Source: a virus. Taken from it: DNA of 64,000 bases. The DNA lies in UHGV virus genome UHGV-0112899; one strand, 5' to 3'. The notes beneath the pieces are model-generated. The model saw only the letters and a program-made list of their open reading frames with translations, searched no databases and had not been told where the DNA came from. Both the position numbers and the translations under genes were made by a program. Positions 12,707 through 38,571 of the stretch are shown one piece after another. Numbering within the stretch: the first letter of the stretch is position 1; the number at the start of each line of letters is the position of its first letter.

Positions 12707-13687
12707 ATGTCCCAGGAGCTACAGCAATACTTTCTACAGTCCATTACCATCAACGGAAACAAAGTGCCCAGGGAGTGGATATTCACTGCCGTATATGTGG
12801 AAAAGGCAAACCTGCGAGCACCATTGCTGAAACTGGAAATTCACGACATTACCGGCACCATAATTGATGACTGGAAAACAAAATACGGCGCAGCACTGGT
12901 TGCAGAGATGGGAGATCCACAAGGCAATTCAGGCACGTTTAAAACAACTTTTTTCGTAACATCTGCGGTGCTGGCTGGTGATGTCATCACGGTCATTGCA
13001 GTCAGTGAAGACGTTCGGATATTTAAGATCCCCGCTATACGGGCTAACCTGCATACAAATAAAACGCCTGATACCATTTTCAAGACGTATACCGGTACAC
13101 TGAAAATCGCCTCCAGCGCATTGAAACGAAGCTGTACGTACCATCTTTCCGCCGGGGAAAAACCCTCCAAAATGCTATCTGAAATGGCCCGCGATAAAGG
13201 CGCTTTATGCTGGGCCTGCCGTGGTCAGTTTAACTTTTATACATTAGCTGACCTTATGAAAGCCAAACCATCATTCACCTATGAAGGGAACAACCCCAGG
13301 GCGGAATACACGATTTCAAAAATGAGGCTTATACAGCAAGAGTATGCCGTTACGGCAAATACTCAGTATCGATTTACCGGCTATTCAATGACTGAAGGCT
13401 ATGTCGAATATGGCGATAGCTCACTTCCAATACGCTATATATCCGATCCGGATATGGAAACTCTGCGCAATATGCAATTGTCGCTCGTACCCAAAATGGA
13501 TATTGAGGTCGCGGGTAATCCCGACATCACGCCGGGAATGGTTATTGAGATCCTCGTGTATCGTTACGACCAGGAAAATAAGCTGGACGAATCGTTGCCT
13601 CGTAAGCTGCTGGTGAAAAACGTAGCCCATTTTGAAGACCGGATCGGCTATACAACACGAATGATATTAGGAGTACCCAACCAGTGA
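12707..13687 (+). CDS. putative baseplate hub / tail protein
   Basis: 326 aa, immediately upstream of the spike-like gene; assignment by position and size only. Confidence 0.3.
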   Translation: MSQELQQYFLQSITINGNKVPREWIFTAVYVEKANLRAPLLKLEIHDITGTIIDDWKTKYGAALVAEMGDPQGNSGTFKTTFFVTSAVLAGDVITVIAVSEDVRIFKIPAIRANLHTNKTPDTIFKTYTGTLKIASSALKRSCTYHLSAGEKPSKMLSEMARDKGALCWACRGQFNFYTLADLMKAKPSFTYEGNNPRAEYTISKMRLIQQEYAVTANTQYRFTGYSMTEGYVEYGDSSLPIRYISDPDMETLRNMQLSLVPKMDIEVAGNPDITPGMVIEILVYRYDQENKLDESLPRKLLVKNVAHFEDRIGYTTRMILGVPNQ

Positions 13688-14361
13688 AACGCAGAGCGCA
13701 AATCGTAGGGACCAAACACCCTGCCGGACTTATGCGAGCGCAGGTCCGCATACTGCCTGACTGGGACGGTGTACCGGATGAAGACCTCCCATGGGCAGAG
13801 TATCAAATGCCTATCGGTAACGCCTTTACACCTACAGTCAGCGGCGATTTAGTCTGGGTCGAATTTCCTTATCTGGATGCTAAAGGCAGGATAGACACGC
13901 GCCGACCTTTAATCGTTGGCGCGGCGCAGGATGCCCCAGGAGGCGTACCAAATGTGCCTCCGGAAGCCTCCGGACAAGGAAGTGGATGGTCGCCAGAAGA
14001 AGTTGATGGTGCTCCTGCCCGCCCCCAGTTTTCGGCGACTGAAGATTTTGTTATTCACCGAAACAATATCCTTGAGGTCAGAACGGCTGGCGGTGGCTAT
14101 GAAATAGCAAACACCGCCGCAGGATCAAGGATAGGGATGAACGAATCCGGCCAGATTTACATAATCGGCCCGGCGAATATAGTGCTTAATGCTGGTGGTG
14201 AGGTTAACGTCAAATCAAGCAGCAAAACCAATGTATCCTCTGATGGAGACGTTAATGTAAAAGGCAGCAATGTAACCGTCGCCGCTGATGGTGATATAGC
14301 CCTGAAAGCTGGTGGCGCGCTAAAAGCAACAGCGAGCAATTTCTCCTTTGTAAAGGGATAG
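13684..14361 (+). CDS. baseplate spike protein (gpV-like)
   Basis: N-terminal VRILPDWDGVPDEDLPWAEY...GDLVWVEF OB-fold-like motif and C-terminal beta-helix-like repeats. Confidence 0.45.
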   Translation: MKRRAQIVGTKHPAGLMRAQVRILPDWDGVPDEDLPWAEYQMPIGNAFTPTVSGDLVWVEFPYLDAKGRIDTRRPLIVGAAQDAPGGVPNVPPEASGQGSGWSPEEVDGAPARPQFSATEDFVIHRNNILEVRTAGGGYEIANTAAGSRIGMNESGQIYIIGPANIVLNAGGEVNVKSSSKTNVSSDGDVNVKGSNVTVAADGDIALKAGGALKATASNFSFVKG

Positions 14362-14367
14362 CAAAAT

Positions 14368-14415
14368 GCAAAACTGTGTTAGATAATTGAGTTTTATTTT
14401 CTAACACAGTTTTGC
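14368..14415. promoter_or_regulatory. 48-bp near-perfect inverted repeat with operator core
   Basis: gcaaaactgtgttagataa ... ttttctaacacagttttgc between the spike gene and rdgC. Confidence 0.5.
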
Positions 14416-14420
14416 GAAAC

Positions 14421-15326
14421 ATGAGATTAGTCGCCTTTAAAAACATATACGTCTATCGCCTTGCCCGCGAAATTAAACTGGACTCAACCACCGTTAGTGA
14501 TGCCTTAAGCCAATTCACATTCACTCCATGCGCATCACAAGAAATGGCAAAAGTCGGATGGGTGCCGGTTCTGGCTGACAACCTGATCCATGAATACCAC
14601 GGTTTTCTACTTCTCCAGCAACAGCGAGAAATTAAGCTCCTGCCCTCCCATGTCATTAAGGAGGAAGTGCAGAAAAAAGTGGAAAAGCTCGAAAATGAGC
14701 AATCTCGTAAGCTGAAGAAGTCGGAAAAAAACACCCTGAAGGATGAAGTTCTCCACTCTTTGTTGCCTCGCGCATTCACTCGCAAATCATTGTCGCGAAT
14801 CCTTATTGATCGCGACAACTATCTGGTCTTCGTAGAAGCTTCCAGCGCCAGAAAAGCAGAAGAAATGCTGGCGCTCTTACGTAAATCACTTGGCAGCCTG
14901 CCAGTGATTCCATTCACGCCGATAGAACCGCTCGAAATGACTATGACCGAATGGTTCAAGTCAACATTTCCTCAAGGCTTTAAAGCAGGCGAAGAAGCCA
15001 TATTGAAATCTCTGTTCGATGACGGCGGCGCAGTTCGTTGCAAGAAAGTAGACCTACAGTCAGAGGAAATAATGACTCATATTGAAGCCGGAAAAGTTGC
15101 AACAACAGTTGCAATCAACTGGCAGGACCGCGCGACCTTCAGGTTAAACGATGACATGAGCATCAAAGCACTGACGTTTTGCGATGATCTCTATGACCAG
15201 AACGATGACATCGACCGTGAAGATGTTGCCCAGCGATTTGATGCTGACTTCATTCTGTTCACAAGCGAATTATCCGCGATGTTTAGCTCGCTGGTGGAGG
15301 CCATTGGCGGTGAAGCAGAGCATTAA
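14421..15326 (+). CDS. rdgC: recombination-associated protein RdgC
   Basis: strong full-length similarity to E. coli RdgC (FKNIYVYRL, FTPCASQEMAKVGWVP, KLKKSEKNTLKDEVLHSLLPRAF, DREDVAQRFDADFIL). Confidence 0.85.
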   Translation: MRLVAFKNIYVYRLAREIKLDSTTVSDALSQFTFTPCASQEMAKVGWVPVLADNLIHEYHGFLLLQQQREIKLLPSHVIKEEVQKKVEKLENEQSRKLKKSEKNTLKDEVLHSLLPRAFTRKSLSRILIDRDNYLVFVEASSARKAEEMLALLRKSLGSLPVIPFTPIEPLEMTMTEWFKSTFPQGFKAGEEAILKSLFDDGGAVRCKKVDLQSEEIMTHIEAGKVATTVAINWQDRATFRLNDDMSIKALTFCDDLYDQNDDIDREDVAQRFDADFILFTSELSAMFSSLVEAIGGEAEH

Positions 15327-15342
15327 TAACCGACCGCTGGCG

Positions 15343-15990
15343 GTGAGTCTTTGTGATTATACAGGGAATATGGTTTCCCCCTGGCTGGAACACGGCATTG
15401 ATGCAGTCATTGTCGATCCGCAACACCAGGAGTCCGGCAGCCAATTGATGGAGTCAGGTGCTGTACTCACACGTATCAGCGCAATTATTGACAGTGATGA
15501 GGTCTACAATTTCCTTCGGAAAAATTTGCACAGAGTTGTATTTTTAGCCGGTTTCCCTCCATGTACTGACCTGGCTGTATCTGGCGCACGCTGGTTCGCA
15601 GATAAAGCAAAAAAAGATCCGGTTTTCCAGTTCAAAGCAATGCAGGTTGTCTGGCAGTGTTACGACATTGCAAAGATGATTGGTTGCCCGTACATGATTG
15701 AAAACCCGGTCAGCCAAATATCGACATTCTGGCGTAAACCTGATCACATATTCCATCCTTATCACTTCACTGCATATTGCAAGGAAGACAATTACACCAA
15801 AAAAACATGCCTGTGGAGCGGACAAGGATTCATCATGCCAACTCCGCGAATCGACAAGTCGTTAGGTGATCCAGATAACCGAATACACAAGGCACCGCCA
15901 GGGCCTGAAAGAGCGAATTTTCGTAGCGCGACACCTTACGGTTTTGCAAGAGCTGTATTTGAAGCAAATAAGGAGGGAATCCGTGGCTGA
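15343..15990 (+). CDS. short C5-cytosine methyltransferase-like protein
   Basis: GFPPCTDLAVSGARW (PC-motif-like) and MIENP (ENV-like); only ~215 aa; start GTG 15343 or ATG 15370. Confidence 0.3.
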   Translation: MSLCDYTGNMVSPWLEHGIDAVIVDPQHQESGSQLMESGAVLTRISAIIDSDEVYNFLRKNLHRVVFLAGFPPCTDLAVSGARWFADKAKKDPVFQFKAMQVVWQCYDIAKMIGCPYMIENPVSQISTFWRKPDHIFHPYHFTAYCKEDNYTKKTCLWSGQGFIMPTPRIDKSLGDPDNRIHKAPPGPERANFRSATPYGFARAVFEANKEGIRG

Positions 15991-16900
15991 TATTGGTGCT
16001 AAATTTATTTCTTATAGCGACAATCATCGTCCTGCGGCGGAAGCCACTATCAGCCATATGCGACGTATTCGCTCGGAGGACGAATTTGATCGCCCAGTCT
16101 TTAAGTGGGTCGGCGGCAAATTTTCTGCACTGCCCATTATCTTCGAACACCTGCCCCACGGAAAACGGTTGATAGAACCTTTCGTTGGAGGTGGCGCTGT
16201 TTTCACTAATGCCGGATTTAAAAGCAACCTGCTGAACGATATCAATAATGACCTGATTAACTTCTATCAGACATTGCAGCGTGAAGGGCATTCTCTTATC
16301 ACACTGGCATATCGTTTTTTTCAGGATTACAACTCTGCTGATGCATTTTTGAATGTTCGCAATGCATTCAACAATGGTGCTTATGATTCCCTTCACCATG
16401 CAGCGGCGTTCCTGTATCTCAATCGTCATTGTTTTAATGGCGTCACTCGCTATAACCGTAAAGGAGAGTTCAACGTCGGATATGGAAAGCAGAAATCACC
16501 CCACTTCCCTCTCGCGGAAATGGAGGCGTTCCTGGCTGACGATATTTCAAAGTATTCGGAATTTGTGTCCGGCGATTTTGCTGGTGTAATTGAGGCTGCC
16601 GGGAATGATGATGTGATTTTCTGCGATCCCCCCTATGAACCATTGCCCGACACTACCGGATTTACAAATTACTCAGGGCATAGCTTTAGGTTTGAAGATC
16701 AACAACGGCTGGTGTCACTGCTGGTGGATGCCCACAGACGCGGAGCGAAAATTGTGATAACAAACAGTGGTGCGCCTAACATTCGCGAACTTTACGTTGG
16801 CAATGGCTTCAAGGTGTATCCTATGCCATCCCGTCGCTCTGTATCCTGTAAAGCATCAACGCGAATGATAGCTAACGACATTATAGCCACACTTAATTAA
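15983..16900 (+). CDS. dam: DNA adenine methyltransferase (Dam family)
   Basis: FKWVGGKFS, EPFVGGGAVF, FLYLNRHCFNGVTRYN, DPPY motifs; GTG start after AAGGAGGG. Confidence 0.85.
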   Translation: MADIGAKFISYSDNHRPAAEATISHMRRIRSEDEFDRPVFKWVGGKFSALPIIFEHLPHGKRLIEPFVGGGAVFTNAGFKSNLLNDINNDLINFYQTLQREGHSLITLAYRFFQDYNSADAFLNVRNAFNNGAYDSLHHAAAFLYLNRHCFNGVTRYNRKGEFNVGYGKQKSPHFPLAEMEAFLADDISKYSEFVSGDFAGVIEAAGNDDVIFCDPPYEPLPDTTGFTNYSGHSFRFEDQQRLVSLLVDAHRRGAKIVITNSGAPNIRELYVGNGFKVYPMPSRRSVSCKASTRMIANDIIATLN

Positions 16901-16901
16901 G

Positions 16902-16926
16902 AAAAGCCCCATATGGGGCTTTTATA
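16902..16926. terminator. bidirectional rho-independent terminator
   Basis: stem aagcccc/ggggctt with atat loop flanked by A/T runs; between convergent dam and partition operons. Confidence 0.6.
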
Positions 16927-16939
16927 ACATCAAACAAGC

Positions 16940-17030
16940 ACCGTTACGGTACACTAACAACACCATTCTGGTACTAAAAAGGAATCAAAGTAGCCTCAAA
17001 ATAACACATGGACCCAAAACGGTGTCATTC
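16940..17030. repeat. partition-site-like repeats (two direct, one inverted copy of CACCNTTNNGGTAC)
   Basis: caccgttacggtacactaa, caccattctggtactaaa and inverted gacccaaaacggtg; related copy at 18149-18176. Confidence 0.4.
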
Positions 17031-17035
17031 CGGCG

Positions 17036-17323
17036 TCATTTTGTATCCTCAGACTCTGCAAGCATGAGGATAGCATGGCGGATCATATTCAATTTGCTGC
17101 GATTATGCTTTTTGCTTAACGCATCAAGTACCTGGTACTCGTATTCATTGAAGCCAACACGAATGGATTTAAAATCACGTGGGGCGTCCTTATCGAGCAC
17201 TTTGTTGTCTTCTGGTTGCTCACCCGGCACCAAATCAGCTTTGCTGGCAAAAGCCTCAATTCGGCGTTCAAGATCGAGGTCTTTTACTTCGGGGGCTTTT
17301 ACCGATTTACGAGGCTTAATCAC
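17036..17323 (-). CDS. ParG-like ribbon-helix-helix partition protein
   Basis: 95 aa; C-terminal RHH-like segment; GTG start after AAGGAG; coupled to the upstream ATPase. Confidence 0.55.
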   Translation of the reverse strand: MIKPRKSVKAPEVKDLDLERRIEAFASKADLVPGEQPEDNKVLDKDAPRDFKSIRVGFNEYEYQVLDALSKKHNRSKLNMIRHAILMLAESEDTK

Positions 17324-17957
17324 TTAATAACTCCTTAACCAACATCTGGATTTCACCTTTAGCTTTCCCGTTGTCCATCTCAACAACGCCCTTCCCTTCA
17401 GCCATACAATCGCGGTAAACCTTGCGATCGCGAATGATGGTTTTCAGCAACTTCAGTTGCGGATATTCAGCCAGGTACTCTTTGGCCTCATTGGCTTCAT
17501 TCACAACCGGATTGGATGGGGCCATTGTTAAAACTGCGCACGCCTTAATGCTAGGATTAGGCATCAGATCCAAAGCCTCTTCAAAGACTTCAACAAAATG
17601 CGCCAGCGTGTCTAAATCTGGCTGAGATGGCCTGAATGGAACAAGCAAAACATCCGCCGCAGTAATACCGGTGCGCATCTCTTTGCTATCACGACCAGCG
17701 GTATCAACAACCACAAATTCATAACGCTTGTCCAGATCAAGAAGTGTTTCACGAATATTCCCAAACTTCTGGACGCAATGAATTACTGGAGAAACCTCTG
17801 CCGCATTACGGTCCGATGCCCAACGGGCAGATGTTCCTTGCTTATCTGCATCAAGTAGAACTACGTCCTTATTTGCGCGGGCAAGCTCCGCACAAATGTT
17901 TACGCTGGTGGTTGATTTGCCACAGCCACCTTTTTGGCTGGCTACCAATATAATCAT
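17316..17957 (-). CDS. parA: ParA/ParF-type partition ATPase
   Basis: deviant Walker A ASQKGGCGKSTT; 213 aa (small type Ib ParA). Confidence 0.8.
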   Translation of the reverse strand: MIILVASQKGGCGKSTTSVNICAELARANKDVVLLDADKQGTSARWASDRNAAEVSPVIHCVQKFGNIRETLLDLDKRYEFVVVDTAGRDSKEMRTGITAADVLLVPFRPSQPDLDTLAHFVEVFEEALDLMPNPSIKACAVLTMAPSNPVVNEANEAKEYLAEYPQLKLLKTIIRDRKVYRDCMAEGKGVVEMDNGKAKGEIQMLVKELLSD

Positions 17958-18099
17958 ATCCGTCCCTCGGTGTTATTTTGGTATCAAAATGGCTCCAAAC
18001 AGAAGCCTTATTGATGCGGTTTTGGCTCTATAGTGGAGTCACTATGCTTTGCAAAAGTATAACACTAAACACTCGAAATTTGCCCTCTGTTGCATCCTG

Positions 18100-18176
18100 T
18101 TTAACACGAAATCAGCCTCAAAGTGGAACCAGACACAAAACAGCACCACAACAACACCGTTTTGGTACTAAAAGAG
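18100..18176. repeat. partition-site-like repeat upstream of the ParF-like gene
   Basis: caacaacaccgttttggtactaaaagag matches the motif at 16957-16983. Confidence 0.4.
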
Positions 18177-18200
18177 CACCAAATTAGAACCATAACAGTA

Positions 18201-18224
18201 TAAAAAAGGCTGCAAATTGCAGCC
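18201..18224 (-). terminator. rho-independent terminator (minus strand)
   Basis: stem ggctgca/tgcagcc with 3-nt loop; followed by T-run on the minus strand. Confidence 0.6.
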
Positions 18225-18242
18225 TTTGAAGATGTAGATTTG

Positions 18243-18608
18243 TTAATCAGGGAGTGAGTTTGCCAAATTCTGTGCAGAGCGGCTTTTCGAAACGCCAGGT
18301 TTTTTAACATCCGCTGAGGCTGAGGGGTTTCCTTCAGGGTTTTCCCGAACTTCAGGCGAAATTTCAAGAAATGAAACCAGCATTTTTCTGATCACTTCAG
18401 GGCTATTATCACCGGATAAAAGCGATGCCAACATGGGAGGTAATCTGCTATCAACCTCGCCAAGAGCGATACCTGCAAGCATCGCTGTGCGCGCCATATC
18501 ATTGCGATCTCTTAATGGATGGCCCTCAAGTTTTGCATCAGCATATTGCTCACTGGCGTTAAGACCAGGACGAAGATAAAACAATACTTTTCGACGTTCC
18601 TGAGACAT
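18243..18608 (-). CDS. parR: ParR/StbB-like partition adaptor
   Basis: 121-aa ORF immediately downstream of parM; assignment by position and size. Confidence 0.5.
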   Translation of the reverse strand: MSQERRKVLFYLRPGLNASEQYADAKLEGHPLRDRNDMARTAMLAGIALGEVDSRLPPMLASLLSGDNSPEVIRKMLVSFLEISPEVRENPEGNPSASADVKKPGVSKSRSAQNLANSLPD

Positions 18609-18618
18609 GGCAACCTCA

Positions 18619-19578
18619 TCAACCGATAGATTTTAGACCATAGACAAGAGCAAGTTGTGGATCATCAGCAACGAAAAACCTATCGTCACGAATGTTTACC
18701 TGCTCACGGATAGCATCAGCAACAAGCGGCGCGCCGCCACCAATGACCATAACATGCGTGTATCCTTTGAAATCACTGATCACATCCAGTACGCGTGTAC
18801 GGAGTCGTTCTATGCTTGACGAAATGGCTTTCTTAACATCATCAATAGCAGACGGATCGTTAATATTGTCGGTCAAATAATCCTCATCATCACGATTAAT
18901 GATTAATTGATCGACATTATAATTAGAGGTTTCGGTATTCGCTTTTGCAAGTGCCTGTCTGACCTCTTTAGTTACCAGCGAAACGCCGAGATTAGAATCG
19001 CCAAATACGCGAGAAACGGCGGTCATTTGCCCGGCGACCATCGACACATCCAGAGTAGTCCCACCAAGATCAACAATAAGCACAGAATGCGCTGGCACAA
19101 GGCTGTCGCACAGACCGATCCCTGCGGGTATTGACTCCGGGCGCACAGTCACTTTTTTGATAGTAAAAACCTGACCTTTGTTAAGGGTGACTGGTCGCAT
19201 CAGGCTGGCCTTTTTCCGCTCAATATTTTTCATGTTGTATTGTGCGTCGTCGTCATAAAACTCTGCCAGTGGCAACGTGACAACTATTTCCACTTCTTGA
19301 GGCTCAATGCCACTTGTAAGCAGGGCATGATGAACAGCAAGCACATTAAGCGGGCTGTATTGCCATTCCACATTATTCGTCGGCAGCACATCCGGCGAAA
19401 TCAAGTCATATGAATATTTTTCGTCATCAATGATGTAGTTAAACGGCTTTCCTGCGCCAAATGTGGCGGACCATCCACGTTTAAAACTGTTCGGACAGAT
19501 ATGGGTTCGAGTTTCCCCGTCTTGTTCCCACAGCATTTTGATATTGGTAGAACCATCGTCGATAAAAATGCGCATCAT
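18619..19578 (-). CDS. parM: ParM/StbA actin-like partition ATPase
   Basis: N-terminal MRIFIDDGSTNIKM and VDLGGTTLDV, VIGGGAPL actin-fold motifs; 320 aa from ATG 19578. Confidence 0.75.
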   Translation of the reverse strand: MMRIFIDDGSTNIKMLWEQDGETRTHICPNSFKRGWSATFGAGKPFNYIIDDEKYSYDLISPDVLPTNNVEWQYSPLNVLAVHHALLTSGIEPQEVEIVVTLPLAEFYDDDAQYNMKNIERKKASLMRPVTLNKGQVFTIKKVTVRPESIPAGIGLCDSLVPAHSVLIVDLGGTTLDVSMVAGQMTAVSRVFGDSNLGVSLVTKEVRQALAKANTETSNYNVDQLIINRDDEDYLTDNINDPSAIDDVKKAISSSIERLRTRVLDVISDFKGYTHVMVIGGGAPLVADAIREQVNIRDDRFFVADDPQLALVYGLKSIG

Positions 19579-19589
19579 ATTGCTCCACT

Positions 19590-19770
19590 TCTGAGACACA
19601 TTTGAGAAAGAATTGAATTTTATATGAGAAAACAAAATAAGACCAGAAGTTAGATAGCGTAAAAAGCATCAAACTAGAGACGTAAAAGAGACACAAAAGA
19701 GACTTAGATGATACATGATGTACCCATGATACCCTTTTGAGACAAATCAGAGACAAATATGAGAAGTAAG
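19590..19770. repeat. parC-like centromere: two clusters of ~11-bp GAGAC(A/G) iterons
   Basis: agagacgtaaa/agagacacaaa/agagacttaga and ttgagacaaatc/agagacaaata/tgagaagtaag flanking a central segment, upstream of parM. Confidence 0.5.
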
Positions 19771-19827
19771 AAATCTGAAGAGTGAAAATCACAAAGTGGA
19801 GAAGATTTAAGAAAAAGGAGGTGTTAG

Positions 19828-20112
19828 ATGAGTGCAATAGCGACCAGTGACACAGTTTGTTCTGGTCATGGAGGATTCCCTCCGCGACCTGTAGCAGAAA
19901 CAGTTTCCTGGTTTACCGTAAATGGAAAGCCAGTAGTTGTAGATGGGGGAGCGTTCCCCAGCCATACAGACGGAAATAGCGCGCACCCCGGATCAGCCGT
20001 ATCGACGCGCTCATGGTTTGCAATAGGCGGGAAAGGAGTTGTTTGTGTGGGAGATCCCCTTTCTTGTGGCTCAGTCATCGCCAATGGTGAGGCAATTTTT
20101 CAGGTGTCATAA
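19828..20112 (+). CDS. PAAR-like spike-tip protein
   Basis: 94 aa; VGDPLSCGSVIANGEAIF and CSGHGGFPP motifs; AGGAGG RBS. Confidence 0.4.
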   Translation: MSAIATSDTVCSGHGGFPPRPVAETVSWFTVNGKPVVVDGGAFPSHTDGNSAHPGSAVSTRSWFAIGGKGVVCVGDPLSCGSVIANGEAIFQVS

Positions 20113-20906
20113 TGCTTGATTCAATCGCTGAAGTTAATGCATTCAAAATTCTAAATGCATCAGGCACAACTACGCCTGCATCTATCACGCTAAGTAAAAC
20201 AGCGTCATCCAATGCCAGTTCTCTGGAAGAGAATATCCAGGCTCTTATCCTGAAGGATAAAGCATACCCGGCGTCGGTGGTTTCATGGGTCAATCAGCTT
20301 TCTGTCTTTTCAGAACAACTGAAAACTGTCAGTGCAGAAGCAACCAATTTAGCCGACTCGCTGTCTCCGTATACTTCGCCAACTGAATTACTTCAGATGA
20401 AAATTGGCTGGGAATGTTACGTCAAAGGTAATGAGTTATCTCCTGCGCCAGAATTTGCTCTCGTAACAGTTATGGGAGATACCCTGCATCCGCAATCGCT
20501 TATTGACGCGTTGGCAGCATTTGAACTGGTGCCAATCACTTCAGCCATGACCGCTATAAATGCAAAAGTTCAGGCGTCAAGCGGGGAGGCTTCAGGCAAC
20601 GGAAGTTCCACCGGAACAACACAGCAACCAGCACTAACAGAAGAAGAGATCAAAGCACTAAAAGACGCAGTGGAAGCAGCAACAGAACAAATAAATGCAA
20701 TAAACAACACGAGCAGTAGTCTCTCAACACTTGTACAGCAAGTTAAGGACTCTACCGGAAAAGCCAAACAGGGACTGGAGAATGCTGTAGCTATTACGTT
20801 AACCGGTTCTCTACTGGGCGATGAAGTAATGAGTCCGGCAATCAGTTTGATCATGCCACAAGGTGTGATCGATGCGCTCCAAAGCAACACTAAAAAGGAA
20901 CCATAA
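20112..20906 (+). CDS. hypothetical protein
   Basis: 264-aa ORF coupled (TAATG) to the PAAR-like gene. Confidence 0.45.
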   Translation: MLDSIAEVNAFKILNASGTTTPASITLSKTASSNASSLEENIQALILKDKAYPASVVSWVNQLSVFSEQLKTVSAEATNLADSLSPYTSPTELLQMKIGWECYVKGNELSPAPEFALVTVMGDTLHPQSLIDALAAFELVPITSAMTAINAKVQASSGEASGNGSSTGTTQQPALTEEEIKALKDAVEAATEQINAINNTSSSLSTLVQQVKDSTGKAKQGLENAVAITLTGSLLGDEVMSPAISLIMPQGVIDALQSNTKKEP

Positions 20907-20976
20907 CTACACCATTTTAGCCCATAAATGGTTACAAATTGGTACACATATCACACCAACAAAAAATCTGAAGAGG

Positions 20977-21435
20977 ATGGTTTTGAAAAAGATAATTTTG
21001 ATAGTAGTTGCGCTTTTAGCCATTTATGGAATTTACCGTACTACGGCGGCAGTTATCGATCACATCAGGTATATCCGTTCCCTGGAAGACTCAAAATCAC
21101 AACTTGAAAGCGAGAACAACACGCTTTCTACCGCATTGCAGTTAAGTGAAAAATCGCGATCTGCCATGATGGCTGAAAACGAAAGAATTAAAACACTGGA
21201 GAAGGAGTACCAGCGCAAAACAGCAGAACTGAATACCAGCCTGATCAAACAACGGGAGGAAAGCCAGAATGAAATTACTCGTCTTGAAACTGCTTTACGC
21301 AATGCTGGGGTTAATGATGTGCGTGTGCCTGATGACGTTATCAGGATGCAGCGGGAACGGGCAAAAGAAATCAATCAGCGTGCCAGTGAAAATTACCGTA
21401 GAAGCCACCAGCAAACCACAGGCAAATCTGATTGA
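20977..21435 (+). CDS. Rz-like i-spanin
   Basis: N-terminal transmembrane helix followed by coiled coil; contains the embedded Rz1-like ORF. Confidence 0.5.
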   Translation: MVLKKIILIVVALLAIYGIYRTTAAVIDHIRYIRSLEDSKSQLESENNTLSTALQLSEKSRSAMMAENERIKTLEKEYQRKTAELNTSLIKQREESQNEITRLETALRNAGVNDVRVPDDVIRMQRERAKEINQRASENYRRSHQQTTGKSD

Positions 21436-21601
21436 TTATACCCCTTGCATAGTGCCAGAGGACACGCCTGTGCTGTTAAACAAGTATCCGGCATACACTG
21501 AACAGTTATTCAGCACTATCGATGAATGCAACCAAAGAAACGCACTGAATAACCAAAGAAACAGGGAGATTTGGGAAGGGAAGGGGGATCAAGGCTCCTG
21601 A
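21269..21601 (+). CDS. Rz1-like o-spanin lipoprotein
   Basis: +1-frame ORF overlapping the Rz-like gene; lipobox LSGC. Confidence 0.5.
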   Translation: MKLLVLKLLYAMLGLMMCVCLMTLSGCSGNGQKKSISVPVKITVEATSKPQANLIDYTPCIVPEDTPVLLNKYPAYTEQLFSTIDECNQRNALNNQRNREIWEGKGDQGS

Positions 21602-22047
21602 AGCCAGATGTCCTGGCTGTCAGCTTCTTCGAAACCGTGACAGACGTTAAAGTCACTCAAGCGATACTGGCGCTGACGGCCTCTATTTCGCTCATGCCAA
21701 TGCATATATCCACCAGCAAATGCCAGCGGACAATCGCTATAGTCGATGTAGCCAATACCATTACCCAAACGCGCTTCGCGCGCCCCGGCTTTCCAGGACA
21801 GCAGAAAAGAGTCACGATCTGCCAGCATGACTACAAAATCATCCGGATCGCCTATGCAGTGAAGAATGCCTGCCTTGCATAACTGTTTGAGTGCCTTAGA
21901 CTGACTCAGGATGTCTTCACCGTAATACTGAAAACAATCATCAACAATAGCGGGATAGCCAGCGGGTGGATTCAGTCTGGTTGGTATAGCTGACGCGATA
22001 GCCAGCATTAAACGATATTGTGTTTTCGATGGGTTCGCGTGACTCAT
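21589..22047 (-). CDS. hypothetical protein
   Basis: ATG 22047 after AGAGGA. Confidence 0.45.
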   Translation of the reverse strand: MSHANPSKTQYRLMLAIASAIPTRLNPPAGYPAIVDDCFQYYGEDILSQSKALKQLCKAGILHCIGDPDDFVVMLADRDSFLLSWKAGAREARLGNGIGYIDYSDCPLAFAGGYMHWHERNRGRQRQYRLSDFNVCHGFEEADSQDIWLQEP

Positions 22048-22531: not shown

Positions 22532-22610
22532 CTATTGACTAAATAACAAAGTGAGTATTGTCACCTCGTCAAAAGAATCTTCACGCCGCGCCCGAATTTA
22601 GGGTTTAACC

Positions 22611-35917: not shown

Positions 35918-36292
35918 ATGCTTTATGAGATTGATGCCCGCCTTCAGACAAACGAGAGCGGGGTGGTAATCGCTGAAGGCGACACAAACGCCTGGATAGC
36001 CCGACTCGATGAATGGCTACGGACACCAAATGGCAGCGTTTACGGATTGCCGTCATGGGGGAATCCGATGGAGGAGTTCAAACACGAATCCTTCGGTTCT
36101 GATACGTCACACATTGTTGAAGTGGCGATTGAAGCGCGAATGATGACGAAGCTACAGCAGGACTTACCAGGGCTTGGACTCCAGGCGATCCGCTGCGCGA
36201 CTGTCTCTGAAGACCAGTTACTAATTAGCTTCCAGGCAAAAGGAGGCACCGTGAATGTTGTTATGCAGAAAGATAGCGGAGATACAGCGTGA
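35918..36292 (+). CDS. baseplate wedge protein (gp25/GpW-like)
   Basis: 124 aa directly after the tape-measure-like gene; GGAGGA RBS. Confidence 0.4.
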   Translation: MLYEIDARLQTNESGVVIAEGDTNAWIARLDEWLRTPNGSVYGLPSWGNPMEEFKHESFGSDTSHIVEVAIEARMMTKLQQDLPGLGLQAIRCATVSEDQLLISFQAKGGTVNVVMQKDSGDTA

Positions 36293-37719
36293 GTATTACC
36301 GAATTACTGGACAAGTTTAATGCCAAGCTGAACGAAAACCCCTGGTGGGCGCGATTTGTAAACAGCCAGTTTATTCAAATGCAGTCCGTTTTGGGCGCGC
36401 AGATTGTTTATATTGCGCGTACATTTGCAAGCCGTGCACTTACAGAAGGATTCATTTCCACCGCGACGCGTAGAGCAAGTATTCTCGCGGCAGCGGAAGA
36501 CCGTGGCTATGTCGGTCGTTTGGTCGATGCGTCATACGGCACTGTTTCCATCACCAACAAAACCGACAGGGATATTACTCTACCCGGAGGGGCTGAATTA
36601 CTGACAAGTGACCAGACACCAATTGCAACCAGCAGTAGTGTTGTTATCCCTGCTGGTGAAACAGTACCCGGCATAGAAGTAAAACAGCATGAAGCAGTCA
36701 GCGTAACGTTCGACGTGGTGCAAGAAACACCATTCTTGACGCTGTTACTTTCCCGTGAGTTAACAGCAGAAGTCGCCAGCCTGGAAGTTGTCGTGATAAC
36801 TAATGGTGTCGAGGAAAAATGGACACATAACCCCCTGTTCCGCATGTCCAGGGATAACAGTAAACATTATGTGTTGGTTTATAAGCCGACAGAACAGATC
36901 GGCGTGCGCTTCGGTGATGGATCAATGGGGATGATGCCAGCGGCAGGGAGTCAGGTACGCATTGATATTATGGCAAGCCTCGGTGATTACACGCTGGCTG
37001 AAGGCCAGAAACTTGAACCAGCAGGGAACATCTCCGGGTATGTCGAATCACTGGAAGTAAAAACCGATTCGATCATTTCTGGCGGTGGTGGCATGGAAAC
37101 TACCGAGGAAACCCGAAACAGGGCGCAGTATTATGTGGCCTACGATGAGCAGGTTGTTTGGGGCGGTGATTACCGCCAGTTCATTCAGAACGTGGTCAGT
37201 GGCACGTCATGGCTTAACGTGTGGGGGGAGGCGCTACAGGAGAAAATCACGGGCTTTGATGTGCGTAATATCAACAAAATTTTCTTTTGTGGGCACAAGC
37301 CCGGCGTAACACAGGAAGCTCTGAAAACAGAGATATTATCAGCCCTTGAGAGTATCCCTAATGAGCTGAATAAGAAGTTCGAATACGTCGCCACCAATGA
37401 ACAGCCGTTCAACATCAAATTTACCGGTATCGTAAAAAAGAGTGTGCTGGTGGATGACGCGCTAACTGCAATTAAAGCGGCACTGGAGGAGAACTTCGGT
37501 AAAGACTCCATGTCATTTAGCCAGCTATTGCAGAGTGATGACGATTCACAGCAATGTTATGCACAGGTCAAAGTAAAAGATATCTGGCGAGTAATCGAAT
37601 CGCTGGATATGTTCCTGTCTTATGACGTGGCTACGCAGAACATGAAAGAAGCTGTGTACTTTAATGATTTTGTTTATCTGGACGTGGAATCATCAACGTT
37701 CAGCATAACCTATCCGTAA
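36289..37719 (+). CDS. putative baseplate protein (J-like)
   Basis: 476 aa, coupled to the wedge-like gene; assignment by position. Confidence 0.3.
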   Translation: MSITELLDKFNAKLNENPWWARFVNSQFIQMQSVLGAQIVYIARTFASRALTEGFISTATRRASILAAAEDRGYVGRLVDASYGTVSITNKTDRDITLPGGAELLTSDQTPIATSSSVVIPAGETVPGIEVKQHEAVSVTFDVVQETPFLTLLLSRELTAEVASLEVVVITNGVEEKWTHNPLFRMSRDNSKHYVLVYKPTEQIGVRFGDGSMGMMPAAGSQVRIDIMASLGDYTLAEGQKLEPAGNISGYVESLEVKTDSIISGGGGMETTEETRNRAQYYVAYDEQVVWGGDYRQFIQNVVSGTSWLNVWGEALQEKITGFDVRNINKIFFCGHKPGVTQEALKTEILSALESIPNELNKKFEYVATNEQPFNIKFTGIVKKSVLVDDALTAIKAALEENFGKDSMSFSQLLQSDDDSQQCYAQVKVKDIWRVIESLDMFLSYDVATQNMKEAVYFNDFVYLDVESSTFSITYP

Positions 37720-37728
37720 GAGGTCACA

Positions 37729-38571
37729 ATGCAGAATAACTGGCTAAAAGAGCGTCTGACGCAATTTAAACAGGATTCTAAATTGTGGGCCGCCTTTGTT
37801 GATACGATTCAGGACGTGTGGAATGAATCGGTTGAACCTATTCTCACGCGAATAAGCAACCGTAAATCGTTTTTCACAATGGCAAGGGAGGATATGGACA
37901 CTCGCATTGCTGAATATGGTCGTTTCTTTGTTATCACAGAAACGGACAAAACACGCAGGCCAATGCTATTAGCTCAACGACTGGATGAGGTGCACTTCAA
38001 AGGAACAGTAAGGCCGATAGAGCAAACGTTCTGGCGTGAATTTGGCACAATCCCCGTCTCATGGGAACCTTTGTATGCGCCTGTCGATACAGAAAAACAT
38101 CCCTATGGTTCATTCTTCGCGACCGCAAATGAAATACCGACCGCTCAGGCACAATATGGTGAGTTTTTCCTGACATCCAGAGGGCTGGTTGTCGTCAACC
38201 AAAATAAGCTGTATCGAGCTTATGATAGCGATGACCGAGACGTTGCTGTACAGAAGCTACTTGCTGATTTTGATACGGTTATAGCGCCGCTATTGCCATT
38301 GCATATCGTGTTTGATGGTGTTTCTTTCCAGTTAAGCGCAACATTGCCGGAAATGGCGGAGATCCTGAATTGCTTATCTGCGGAAGTGTCCTTTATTGAG
38401 GGGGTGTACACGACGCAAGAGATGGTCGATGAGCTATCTATTAGCGATACGATCATTCAAATAGGCGGCATCCAGTTCGCAGGAAGGCCAGACCGGACGA
38501 CGGAAAGAGTGCTTCATCTCGATGAACTCCCGCTCGACGCCTGGGCGCTGGATTATAATTTTGCACCTTAG
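37729..38571 (+). CDS. putative baseplate/tail protein
   Basis: 280-aa ORF within the baseplate cluster. Confidence 0.3.
   Translation: MQNNWLKERLTQFKQDSKLWAAFVDTIQDVWNESVEPILTRISNRKSFFTMAREDMDTRIAEYGRFFVITETDKTRRPMLLAQRLDEVHFKGTVRPIEQTFWREFGTIPVSWEPLYAPVDTEKHPYGSFFATANEIPTAQAQYGEFFLTSRGLVVVNQNKLYRAYDSDDRDVAVQKLLADFDTVIAPLLPLHIVFDGVSFQLSATLPEMAEILNCLSAEVSFIEGVYTTQEMVDELSISDTIIQIGGIQFAGRPDRTTERVLHLDELPLDAWALDYNFAP

Follow-up and report, generated by a model that had tools for sequence, protein, structure and literature searches.

The locus considered here raises two questions: (i) why is a gene for a PAAR-like protein found kilobases away from the other baseplate genes of the same phage genome and (ii) what is the 264-aa protein whose gene begins within the stop codon of the PAAR-like gene. 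The window, by which we mean the whole 64,000-nt stretch of viral DNA that was analyzed, is a D6-like, P1-related phage-plasmid of Escherichia coli. The region is matched at 99% identity by ~90-kb non-mobilizable plasmids of E. coli and E. marmotae, and similarity to phage D6 (a P1-related plasmid prophage) is partial, with 48% coverage and 90% identity. Orthologs of the P1 baseplate proteins gp5, gp6, PmgA, BplA and Gp16 are all encoded in the window. The features referred to below are as follows:

12707–13687, + strand: baseplate hub gene (P1 gp6 ortholog; PDB 9vzk_1 Gp6, E 9e-76), overlapping the start of the spike gene
13684–14361, + strand: spike gene (P1 gp5 ortholog; PDB 9vzk_q Gp5, E 3.2e-54; 77% identical to D6 gene 5)
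14412–19635, no strand assigned: putative inserted accessory block in the spike–tip interval, with an hrdC/rdgC-like gene, two methyltransferase-region genes, a small ORF, ParA, ParR and ParM
17316–17957, − strand: ParA, upstream of the tip gene
18243–18608, − strand: ParR (Plasmid_stab_B), upstream of the tip gene
18619–19635, − strand: ParM, upstream of the tip gene
19815–19830, + strand: ribosome-binding site AAGGAGGTG and ATG of the tip gene
19828–20112, + strand: predicted spike-tip gene, ortholog of P1 upfC and T4 gene 5.4 (PAAR-like, 94 aa, 9.4 kDa, ATG start)
20102–20114, + strand: predicted translational coupling site (AGGTG 20102–20106, stop TAA 20110–20112, start ATG 20112–20114)
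20112–20906, + strand: P1 upfB ortholog (264 aa, ATG start, 27.5 kDa, pI 4.5, all-helical)
20872–21601, + strand: spanin pair downstream of the tip and partner genes (P1 ppfA/mlp equivalents; phrog_214, phrog_89 and phrog_456 'Rz-like spanin')
35918–36292: wedge gene, PmgA match
36289–37719: wedge gene, BplA match
37729–38571: wedge gene, Gp16 match

The first-pass annotation placed the pair between the partition locus and the spanins, more than 5 kb from the spike gene at 13684 and 15 kb from the other baseplate genes, and all of this agrees with the assignments above. ParA, ParR and ParM lie upstream and the Rz-like/Rz1-like pair lies downstream; the spike gene ends 5.47 kb ahead of the tip gene and the PmgA, BplA and Gp16 wedge genes begin ~15 kb beyond the pair. 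The spanin ORFs run from 20872 to 21435 (Rz-like) and from 21269 to 21601 (Rz1-like, the o-spanin). The i-spanin itself likely starts at about 20977, leaving about 70 nt between it and the upfB-like gene.

The PAAR-like character of the 94-aa product, originally proposed from motifs, is upheld by profile searches. The protein scores 30.0 bits (E 6.2e-7) against the Pfam PAAR_motif family (PF05488), for which the cut-off is 27 bits, and matches phrog_281 with an E value of 1.7e-28. The solved structure of P1 UpfC (PDB 9vyi_A) aligns with residues 1–94, that is, over the whole protein (E 6.2e-36), and T4 gp5.4 (5iv5_ZA) is matched with an E value of 6.7e-7; identity is 88% to D6 orf57 and 57% to P1 UpfC. 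In an alignment of 10 tips ranging from P1-like proteins through T4-like gp5.4, residues His14, His46, His53 and Cys80 are invariant, and we take these positions to be the apex metal ligands of published PAAR structures. From sequence comparison, we assign the 94-aa protein as a PAAR-type spike tip of the T4 gp5.4/P1 UpfC subgroup. Its cognate spike is encoded in the same genome, at 13684–14361, by the gene that matches P1 Gp5, and the tip gene itself is preceded by a strong Shine–Dalgarno sequence (GGAGG, 19817–19821).

Two better-known systems help to place this protein. T4 gp5.4 forms a homologous PAAR-type cone on the gp5 β-helix, although a lysozyme domain is part of T4 gp5 and is absent from P1-type gp5. 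The PAAR proteins of type VI secretion systems (T6SS), such as Vibrio cholerae VCA0105 (PDB 4jiv), belong to the same fold family and cap a trimeric spike; 4jiv_D matches residues 12–88 of the window protein with an E value of 1.6e-4. Unlike its T6SS counterparts, however, the 94-aa phage tip is not extended at either terminus, has no T6SS genes in its vicinity and is not accompanied by an effector/immunity pair.

The 264-aa partner is almost certainly the ortholog of P1 UpfB. A tblastn comparison with P1 UpfB gives 31% identity over 97% of the length (E 3e-19), D6 orf56 is 58.6% identical and phrog_1559 matches the protein at full length (E 2.9e-101, positions 1–261 of 263). No Pfam family (at E below 0.001) and no PDB chain was found for it by sequence. 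The UpfB family appears to be narrow and uniform: a UpfB profile run against 1.84 billion representative proteins recovers 70 clusters, and the near-full-length matches are all 240–265 aa long with a single matched stretch. A Pfam scan of 47 family members gave nothing below an E value of 0.008. The AF2 model of the window protein (pLDDT 88, pTM 0.79) is composed of ten helices and of helices only, including a 58-residue helix at 177–234 that follows a Gly/Ser-rich, disordered linker at 158–176. The protein is acidic and has no arginine; its maximum Kyte–Doolittle value in a 19-residue window is 1.48, and no signal peptide, lipobox or transmembrane segment was found in its sequence.

The pair therefore corresponds to P1 upfC/upfB, for which structural roles have already been published between 2022 and 2026. 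Gonzales et al. predicted in 2022 that UpfC is gp5.4-like, and in that study deletion of P1 upfC caused no plaque defect, UpfC was not detected by LC-MS/MS of virions and UpfB is unmentioned for the virion in the main text (PMC9024508). A delta-upfB mutant was also built, and among 29 P1 single-gene knock-outs only five, all in pmg genes, were defective (PMC9024508). Both upfB and upfC were likewise non-essential in a CRISPRi screen of P1 (PMC10695390). In the 2026 cryo-EM analysis of P1, UpfC was built as a monomer on the gp5 trimer, and UpfB was assigned, by fitting an AlphaFold3 model into a map of medium resolution, to a novel tripod that is anchored on UpfC; gp5, UpfC and UpfB together were suggested to be a membrane-piercing apparatus (PMC12810830). 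The tripod description is repeated in PMC13611949, but the stoichiometry of UpfB is inconsistent between the two accounts, given as 'three trimeric' in PMC12810830 and as 'three copies' in PMC13611949. In a further preprint, on the baseplate of P1, UpfC is modeled and UpfB goes unmentioned, and no UpfB chain is deposited in the PDB.

The P1 pair (PDB 9vyi, 9vzk) has the same gene order as the window pair, the same baseplate partners (gp5, gp6, PmgA, BplA and gp16) and the same spanin pair after it; the P1 map reads upfC, upfB, ppfA, mlp, and ppfA and mlp are regarded as the P1 spanins (PMC9025707). The two loci differ in the strong divergence of UpfB noted above and in their surroundings. In P1 the neighbors of the pair are oriR/repA/parAB and a dmt promoter under C1 control, and in the window a ParMRC-type partition locus. 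In D6 (NC_050154), which is of the same genome type, the local gene order around orf57/orf56 agrees with that of the window between P1 genes 24 and 21, but the glnS gene found in D6 between dmt and par is missing from the window element.

The coupling of the two ORFs, also claimed from the first reading, is evident at the junction, where the TAA and the ATG have one base in common (TAATG) and AGGTG sits in the last codons of the tip gene, ahead of the 264-aa ORF. We compared this arrangement across 34 related loci, drawn from IMG/VR together with one Citrobacter genome, the latter being the single locus returned by a scan of species-representative genomes. A UpfC homolog lies directly upstream of a UpfB homolog, and a spanin pair lies downstream, in all 34. 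In 33 of the loci the stop codon overlaps the start codon (TAATG or TGATG), and in the remaining one (L027) the two abut as TAGATG; the form AGGTn-N4-5-T(A/G)ATG, or TAGATG, with the AGGT site inside the end of upfC, describes every junction. Conservation of UpfC across the loci (59–100%) is always above that of UpfB (34–100%). Since the pair is retained at all of the related loci, these are real genes and not chance ORFs. Opposite-strand ORFs of 59–125 aa inside the pair were also considered and rejected as spurious; conservation tracks the + strand frames. Note that in the P1 record upfB is annotated as overlapping upfC by 49 nt, while a conserved ML(D/E) start is located 8 nt after the upfC stop.

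More distant P1-like contigs speak to the first of the two questions. In the contig we call L040, hub, spike and tip are contiguous, with the spike stop at 2036 and the PAAR gene start at 2040; the tip is followed by a lysis cassette whose last genes encode the i- and o-spanins, UpfB begins at the o-spanin stop and the major capsid protein comes next. A second contig, L039, reads hub, spike, tip, five small genes, UpfB and major capsid protein. In both of these contigs UpfB is directly before the major capsid gene and is separated from the tip by 1.5–2.7 kb of lysis genes. In the third contig, L038, a 2.4-kb methyltransferase-containing block stands between spike and tip, UpfB and then the major capsid protein come after the tip, and spanins are absent from this location; here the adjacency of tip and UpfB is kept although UpfB is only ~20% identical. 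Homologs of hub, spike, major capsid and sheath flank the region in all three contigs, and the UpfB gene of P1-like phages is always located between the spike and major capsid genes.

From these gene orders we reconstruct the ancestral block as gp24, hub, spike, tip, variable genes, UpfB, capsid, sheath and gp21. The accessory block of the window is missing between spike and tip in L040 and L039, and the methyltransferase block stands in its place in L038. Because the tip directly follows the spike in distant P1-like contigs, the 5.5-kb gap in the window can be read as an insertion of recombination, methylase and partition genes, and the remote position of the pair as the result of this insertion having split the ancestral structural block. 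The spike–tip interval would then be an insertion hot spot that took up plasmid-maintenance and DNA-modification genes, and the comparison explains why the tip genes of P1-type phages are found apart from the other baseplate genes.

For the second question, we consider it probable that the pair encodes the tip and tripod of the cell-puncturing device as one translationally coupled module. By homology with P1 UpfC and T4 gp5.4, one copy of the 94-aa PAAR cone would cap the blunt end of the trimeric gp5 β-helix spike, and a metal site at His14, His46, His53 and Cys80 probably makes the cone more rigid. Ribosomes terminating on the tip gene would go on to translate the 264-aa gene. The UpfB-like protein would be a three-legged tripod anchored on the tip below the spike, as assigned in P1 virions, and would be the first part of the tail-tube assembly to be driven into the envelope on sheath contraction. 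A virion role for the 264-aa protein would follow, by analogy, from the assignment made in the P1 map. We infer that the window phage has the same virion arrangement as P1 and the same dispensability of the two proteins for plaque formation, and that the tripod may act in envelope penetration or sensing and would not be delivered as an effector.

An alternative that we judge unlikely gives the 264-aa protein a role in assembly only, as a factor or chaperone that helps to fold the tip or load it onto the spike and is then discarded without entering the virion. A chaperone would account for the translational coupling and the conserved adjacency no less well than a structural partner, UpfB is unreported in P1 virion mass spectrometry and dispensable like the tip itself, and no atomic model of it has been built. 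However, the P1 cryo-EM map has extra density on the tip that is fitted by the UpfB model, and a chaperone of 264 aa would be unusually big for a cone of 94 aa. The PAAR structures of T4 and T6SS that were matched here, moreover, were deposited with no such partner chain. The neighborhood offers a different interpretation, in which the protein is a lysis or envelope protein that works with the downstream spanins and is no part of the virion. Indeed, upfB is on the same strand as the spanin pair and upstream of it in P1, in D6 and in all 34 close loci, in L040 the o-spanin gene that closes the lysis cassette is immediately followed by UpfB, and a weak PHROG match to an Rz-like spanin (E 0.08) is seen. 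We nevertheless regard this role as very improbable, because the protein is acidic and soluble and carries none of the export or membrane-anchoring signals searched for, its gene is coupled to the tip gene with ~70 nt before the likely i-spanin start, L038 keeps the tip–UpfB pair without adjoining spanins and P1 cryo-EM assigns UpfB to the virion.

The first-pass annotation had suggested that the downstream protein could be a spike-associated cargo or adaptor, and the two halves of this suggestion part company. Association with the spike stands, in the form of the P1 UpfB tripod on UpfC (PMC12810830), but cargo or adaptor in the T6SS sense does not. Such a protein would ride on the PAAR tip as an effector or adaptor and be delivered into the cell, and the position of the gene directly after a PAAR gene has been likened to T6SS PAAR–cargo pairs; the 264-aa protein would also be the leading element entering the cell. 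Against this, the Pfam scan of the 47 UpfB family members revealed no toxin or enzyme domain and none of the adaptor domains DUF4123, DUF1795 and DUF2169. A Foldseek search of the AF2 model against the PDB gave no match with an E value below 0.05, the structures returned being generic helical bundles of low identity. No immunity-like gene and no T6SS genes are found nearby, where the neighbors are partition, spanin and capsid genes, and the gene belongs to the conserved core of P1-like phages, to which it is restricted. Delivery as a T6SS-style cargo is thus extremely unlikely, and the tip-plus-tripod module remains the reading that we prefer.

Within this module the two proteins have not evolved at the same pace. 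Relative to D6, most proteins of the region are 76–96% identical, but UpfB is 58.6% and ParR 59% identical. The divergence is confined at the DNA level: identity to D6 falls to ~50–60% across 20153–20777 (UpfB residues 15–222) and is 80–100% on both flanks. Across the UpfB family, the conserved parts are the N-terminal 14 residues, a block at 85–118 and the C-terminal ~45 residues. The UpfB allele of the window is a minority type, found in 7 of 122 plasmid records and in 4 of 33 IMG/VR loci, and its nearest other relatives are only 60% identical. The pattern in the core could reflect cassette replacement or fast evolution of an exposed part of the tripod. Conserved termini and tip together with a diverged core would be expected of a protein that docks on the tip through its termini and contacts, through its core, a bacterial surface or periplasmic target that varies. 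It is conceivable, though we think it doubtful, that the tripod protein is an exchangeable, host-envelope-specific module and not a passive cap.

Possible relatives of UpfB outside the P1-like phages were examined in two directions. In T4-like genomes a small gene, 5.1, abuts 5.4, but it lies upstream of the tip gene and not downstream as upfB does. An AF3 model has led to the proposal that gp5.1 binds gp5.4 (PMC13611949). As a sequence analog of UpfB we rejected gp5.1, given that JS98 gp5.1 (179 aa) aligns with the UpfB profile at an hhalign probability of 0.1%; gp5.1 has no Pfam family.

The second direction is DUF7217 (PF23854), found in FelixO1-like and Ackermannviridae phages, whose members resemble UpfB in size (~240 aa) and in their helical fold. 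These proteins are the best Foldseek matches of the AF2 model in BFVD (E 6.6e-4, TM about 0.5), and hhalign of the UpfB and DUF7217 alignments gives a weak, collinear match over 150 columns (E 0.002, probability 13.5%). An N-terminal motif, Q-x-x-F-x-x-L-x-x-G-G-x-x-x-P, is common to both. The Pfam DUF7217 model, however, matches none of the 47 UpfB family members, and the gene context, which we followed through Wc4, VpaE1, HP1, Se_EM1 and Coodle, differs from that of upfB: DUF7217 genes occur either in a tRNA cluster that precedes terminase or between a major capsid gene and a tail-completion gene, and none of their neighbors is annotated as PAAR. The relationship is weak and collinear but not significant, and we treat it as unproven. 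If the structural link is real, similar tip-associated helical proteins may be present in FelixO1-like and Ackermannviridae phages.

We also examined the region for signals that might govern expression of the pair. The P1-type late promoters LPsit and LP23 have AACAA(A/G)TGACT-N5-TA.AAT in common, and the sequence ACAAAGTG precedes the tip gene by 37 nt and the capsid gene by 65 nt. This box occurs seven times in the window against 2.8 expected, several of the copies are intragenic and the −10 elements are poor. A P1-like late-promoter box before the tip gene is suggested by this similarity at a level that is not significant. A sigma-70 scan of 19400–21800 found nothing, and no RNA family of Rfam was found between 17000 and 23000.

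The exact pair is present in 17 of 5,426 complete E. coli genomes and is plasmid-borne in every case. In those 17 genomes the label is 'hypothetical protein', or the match covers an annotation for just one gene of the pair. In the RefSeq and PLSDB records of the ~90-kb plasmids, both genes are called 'hypothetical protein' or the tip gene is absent from the feature table. The D6 record, by comparison, notes the similarity to upfC and annotates orf56 as 'similar to P1 gene upfB'. For the window and its plasmid relatives, the annotation can now be clarified as a predicted spike tip (UpfC-like) and a putative tip-associated tripod protein (UpfB-like).

Between parM and the tip gene, a PAAR-type upfC orthologue, the intergenic spacer contains a run of short repeats in which three copies are followed by a gap and then by three further copies.

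Window 19677–19770, parM–tip gene spacer: iteron array of GAGAC-type repeats with 11-bp spacing

In its sequence organization, this array looks like a parC centromere of the ParMRC type. Because the iterons stop only ~60 nt before the start of the tip gene, binding of ParR to them could influence the promoter region of the tip operon. Compared with the D6 locus (L001), ParM and ParA are conserved (93% and 96% identity, respectively), whereas ParR (window 18243–18608, minus strand; L001 7761–8099) is just 59% identical and the parC-like spacers (window 19636–19785 versus L001 9069–9290) cannot be aligned, with identities of 17–52%. This combination of diverged ParR and spacer with conserved ParM and ParA suggests that partition or incompatibility specificity has been switched relative to D6. 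The two elements also differ in the interval from the methylase to the par genes, which in D6 is occupied by a glutaminyl-tRNA synthetase gene (L001 4622–6283) and in the window measures just 136 nt (16900–17036).

A possible late-promoter element is present between the iterons and the tip gene. The 8-mer ACAAAGTG, at 19791–19798 (37 nt 5′ of the tip gene), recurs at 22546–22553, 65 nt 5′ of the major capsid gene, and is also found upstream of D6 upfC (L001, about 9290). Its sequence is reminiscent of the −22 box found in LPsit and LP23, two late promoters of P1. The window contains seven copies where 2.8 are expected, some of them intragenic.

The core of the UpfB-like gene (20153–20777) forms a sharp island of divergence from D6, with DNA identity of ~50–60% inside and 80–100% outside, and no closer donor for this segment was found in any database searched. 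The 264-aa product (20112–20906) contains no arginine, one histidine and one cysteine, and serine and alanine together make up 25% of its residues. The best viral fold matches to its model are helical DUF7217 proteins of ~240 aa from FelixO1-like and Ackermannviridae phages:

L044 25633–26355, minus strand: DUF7217 protein
L045 3776–4504: DUF7217 protein
L049 2995–3729: DUF7217 protein

These proteins share with the UpfB-like protein an N-terminal motif, Q-x-x-F-x-x-L-x-x-G-G-x-x-x-P. In FelixO1-like phages, the DUF7217 gene lies within a tRNA cluster, immediately upstream of the terminase.

In a distant P1-like contig (L040), the tip and UpfB-like genes are separated by a complete lysis cassette.

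L040 2530–5001: peptidoglycan-binding glycosidase, membrane protein, lysozyme, i-spanin and LysC-type o-spanin

Lysis and tip genes share one variable slot in this lineage.

In the P1 record, the annotated start of upfB (L003 3944–4789; 63982–64827) falls 49 nt within upfC. Since ML(D/E/N) forms the N terminus of every homologue and the P1 alignment opens at L003 4001, 8 nt past the upfC stop, the annotated start is probably too far upstream. The 94-aa tip gene is missing from the PLSDB feature table of plasmid pEC361_3 (L002 9077–9612), and several near-identical Escherichia coli RefSeq plasmids have a single ‘hypothetical protein’ beneath the two-gene match. Where either gene is listed in pEC361_3 or the RefSeq plasmids, it is named ‘hypothetical protein’.
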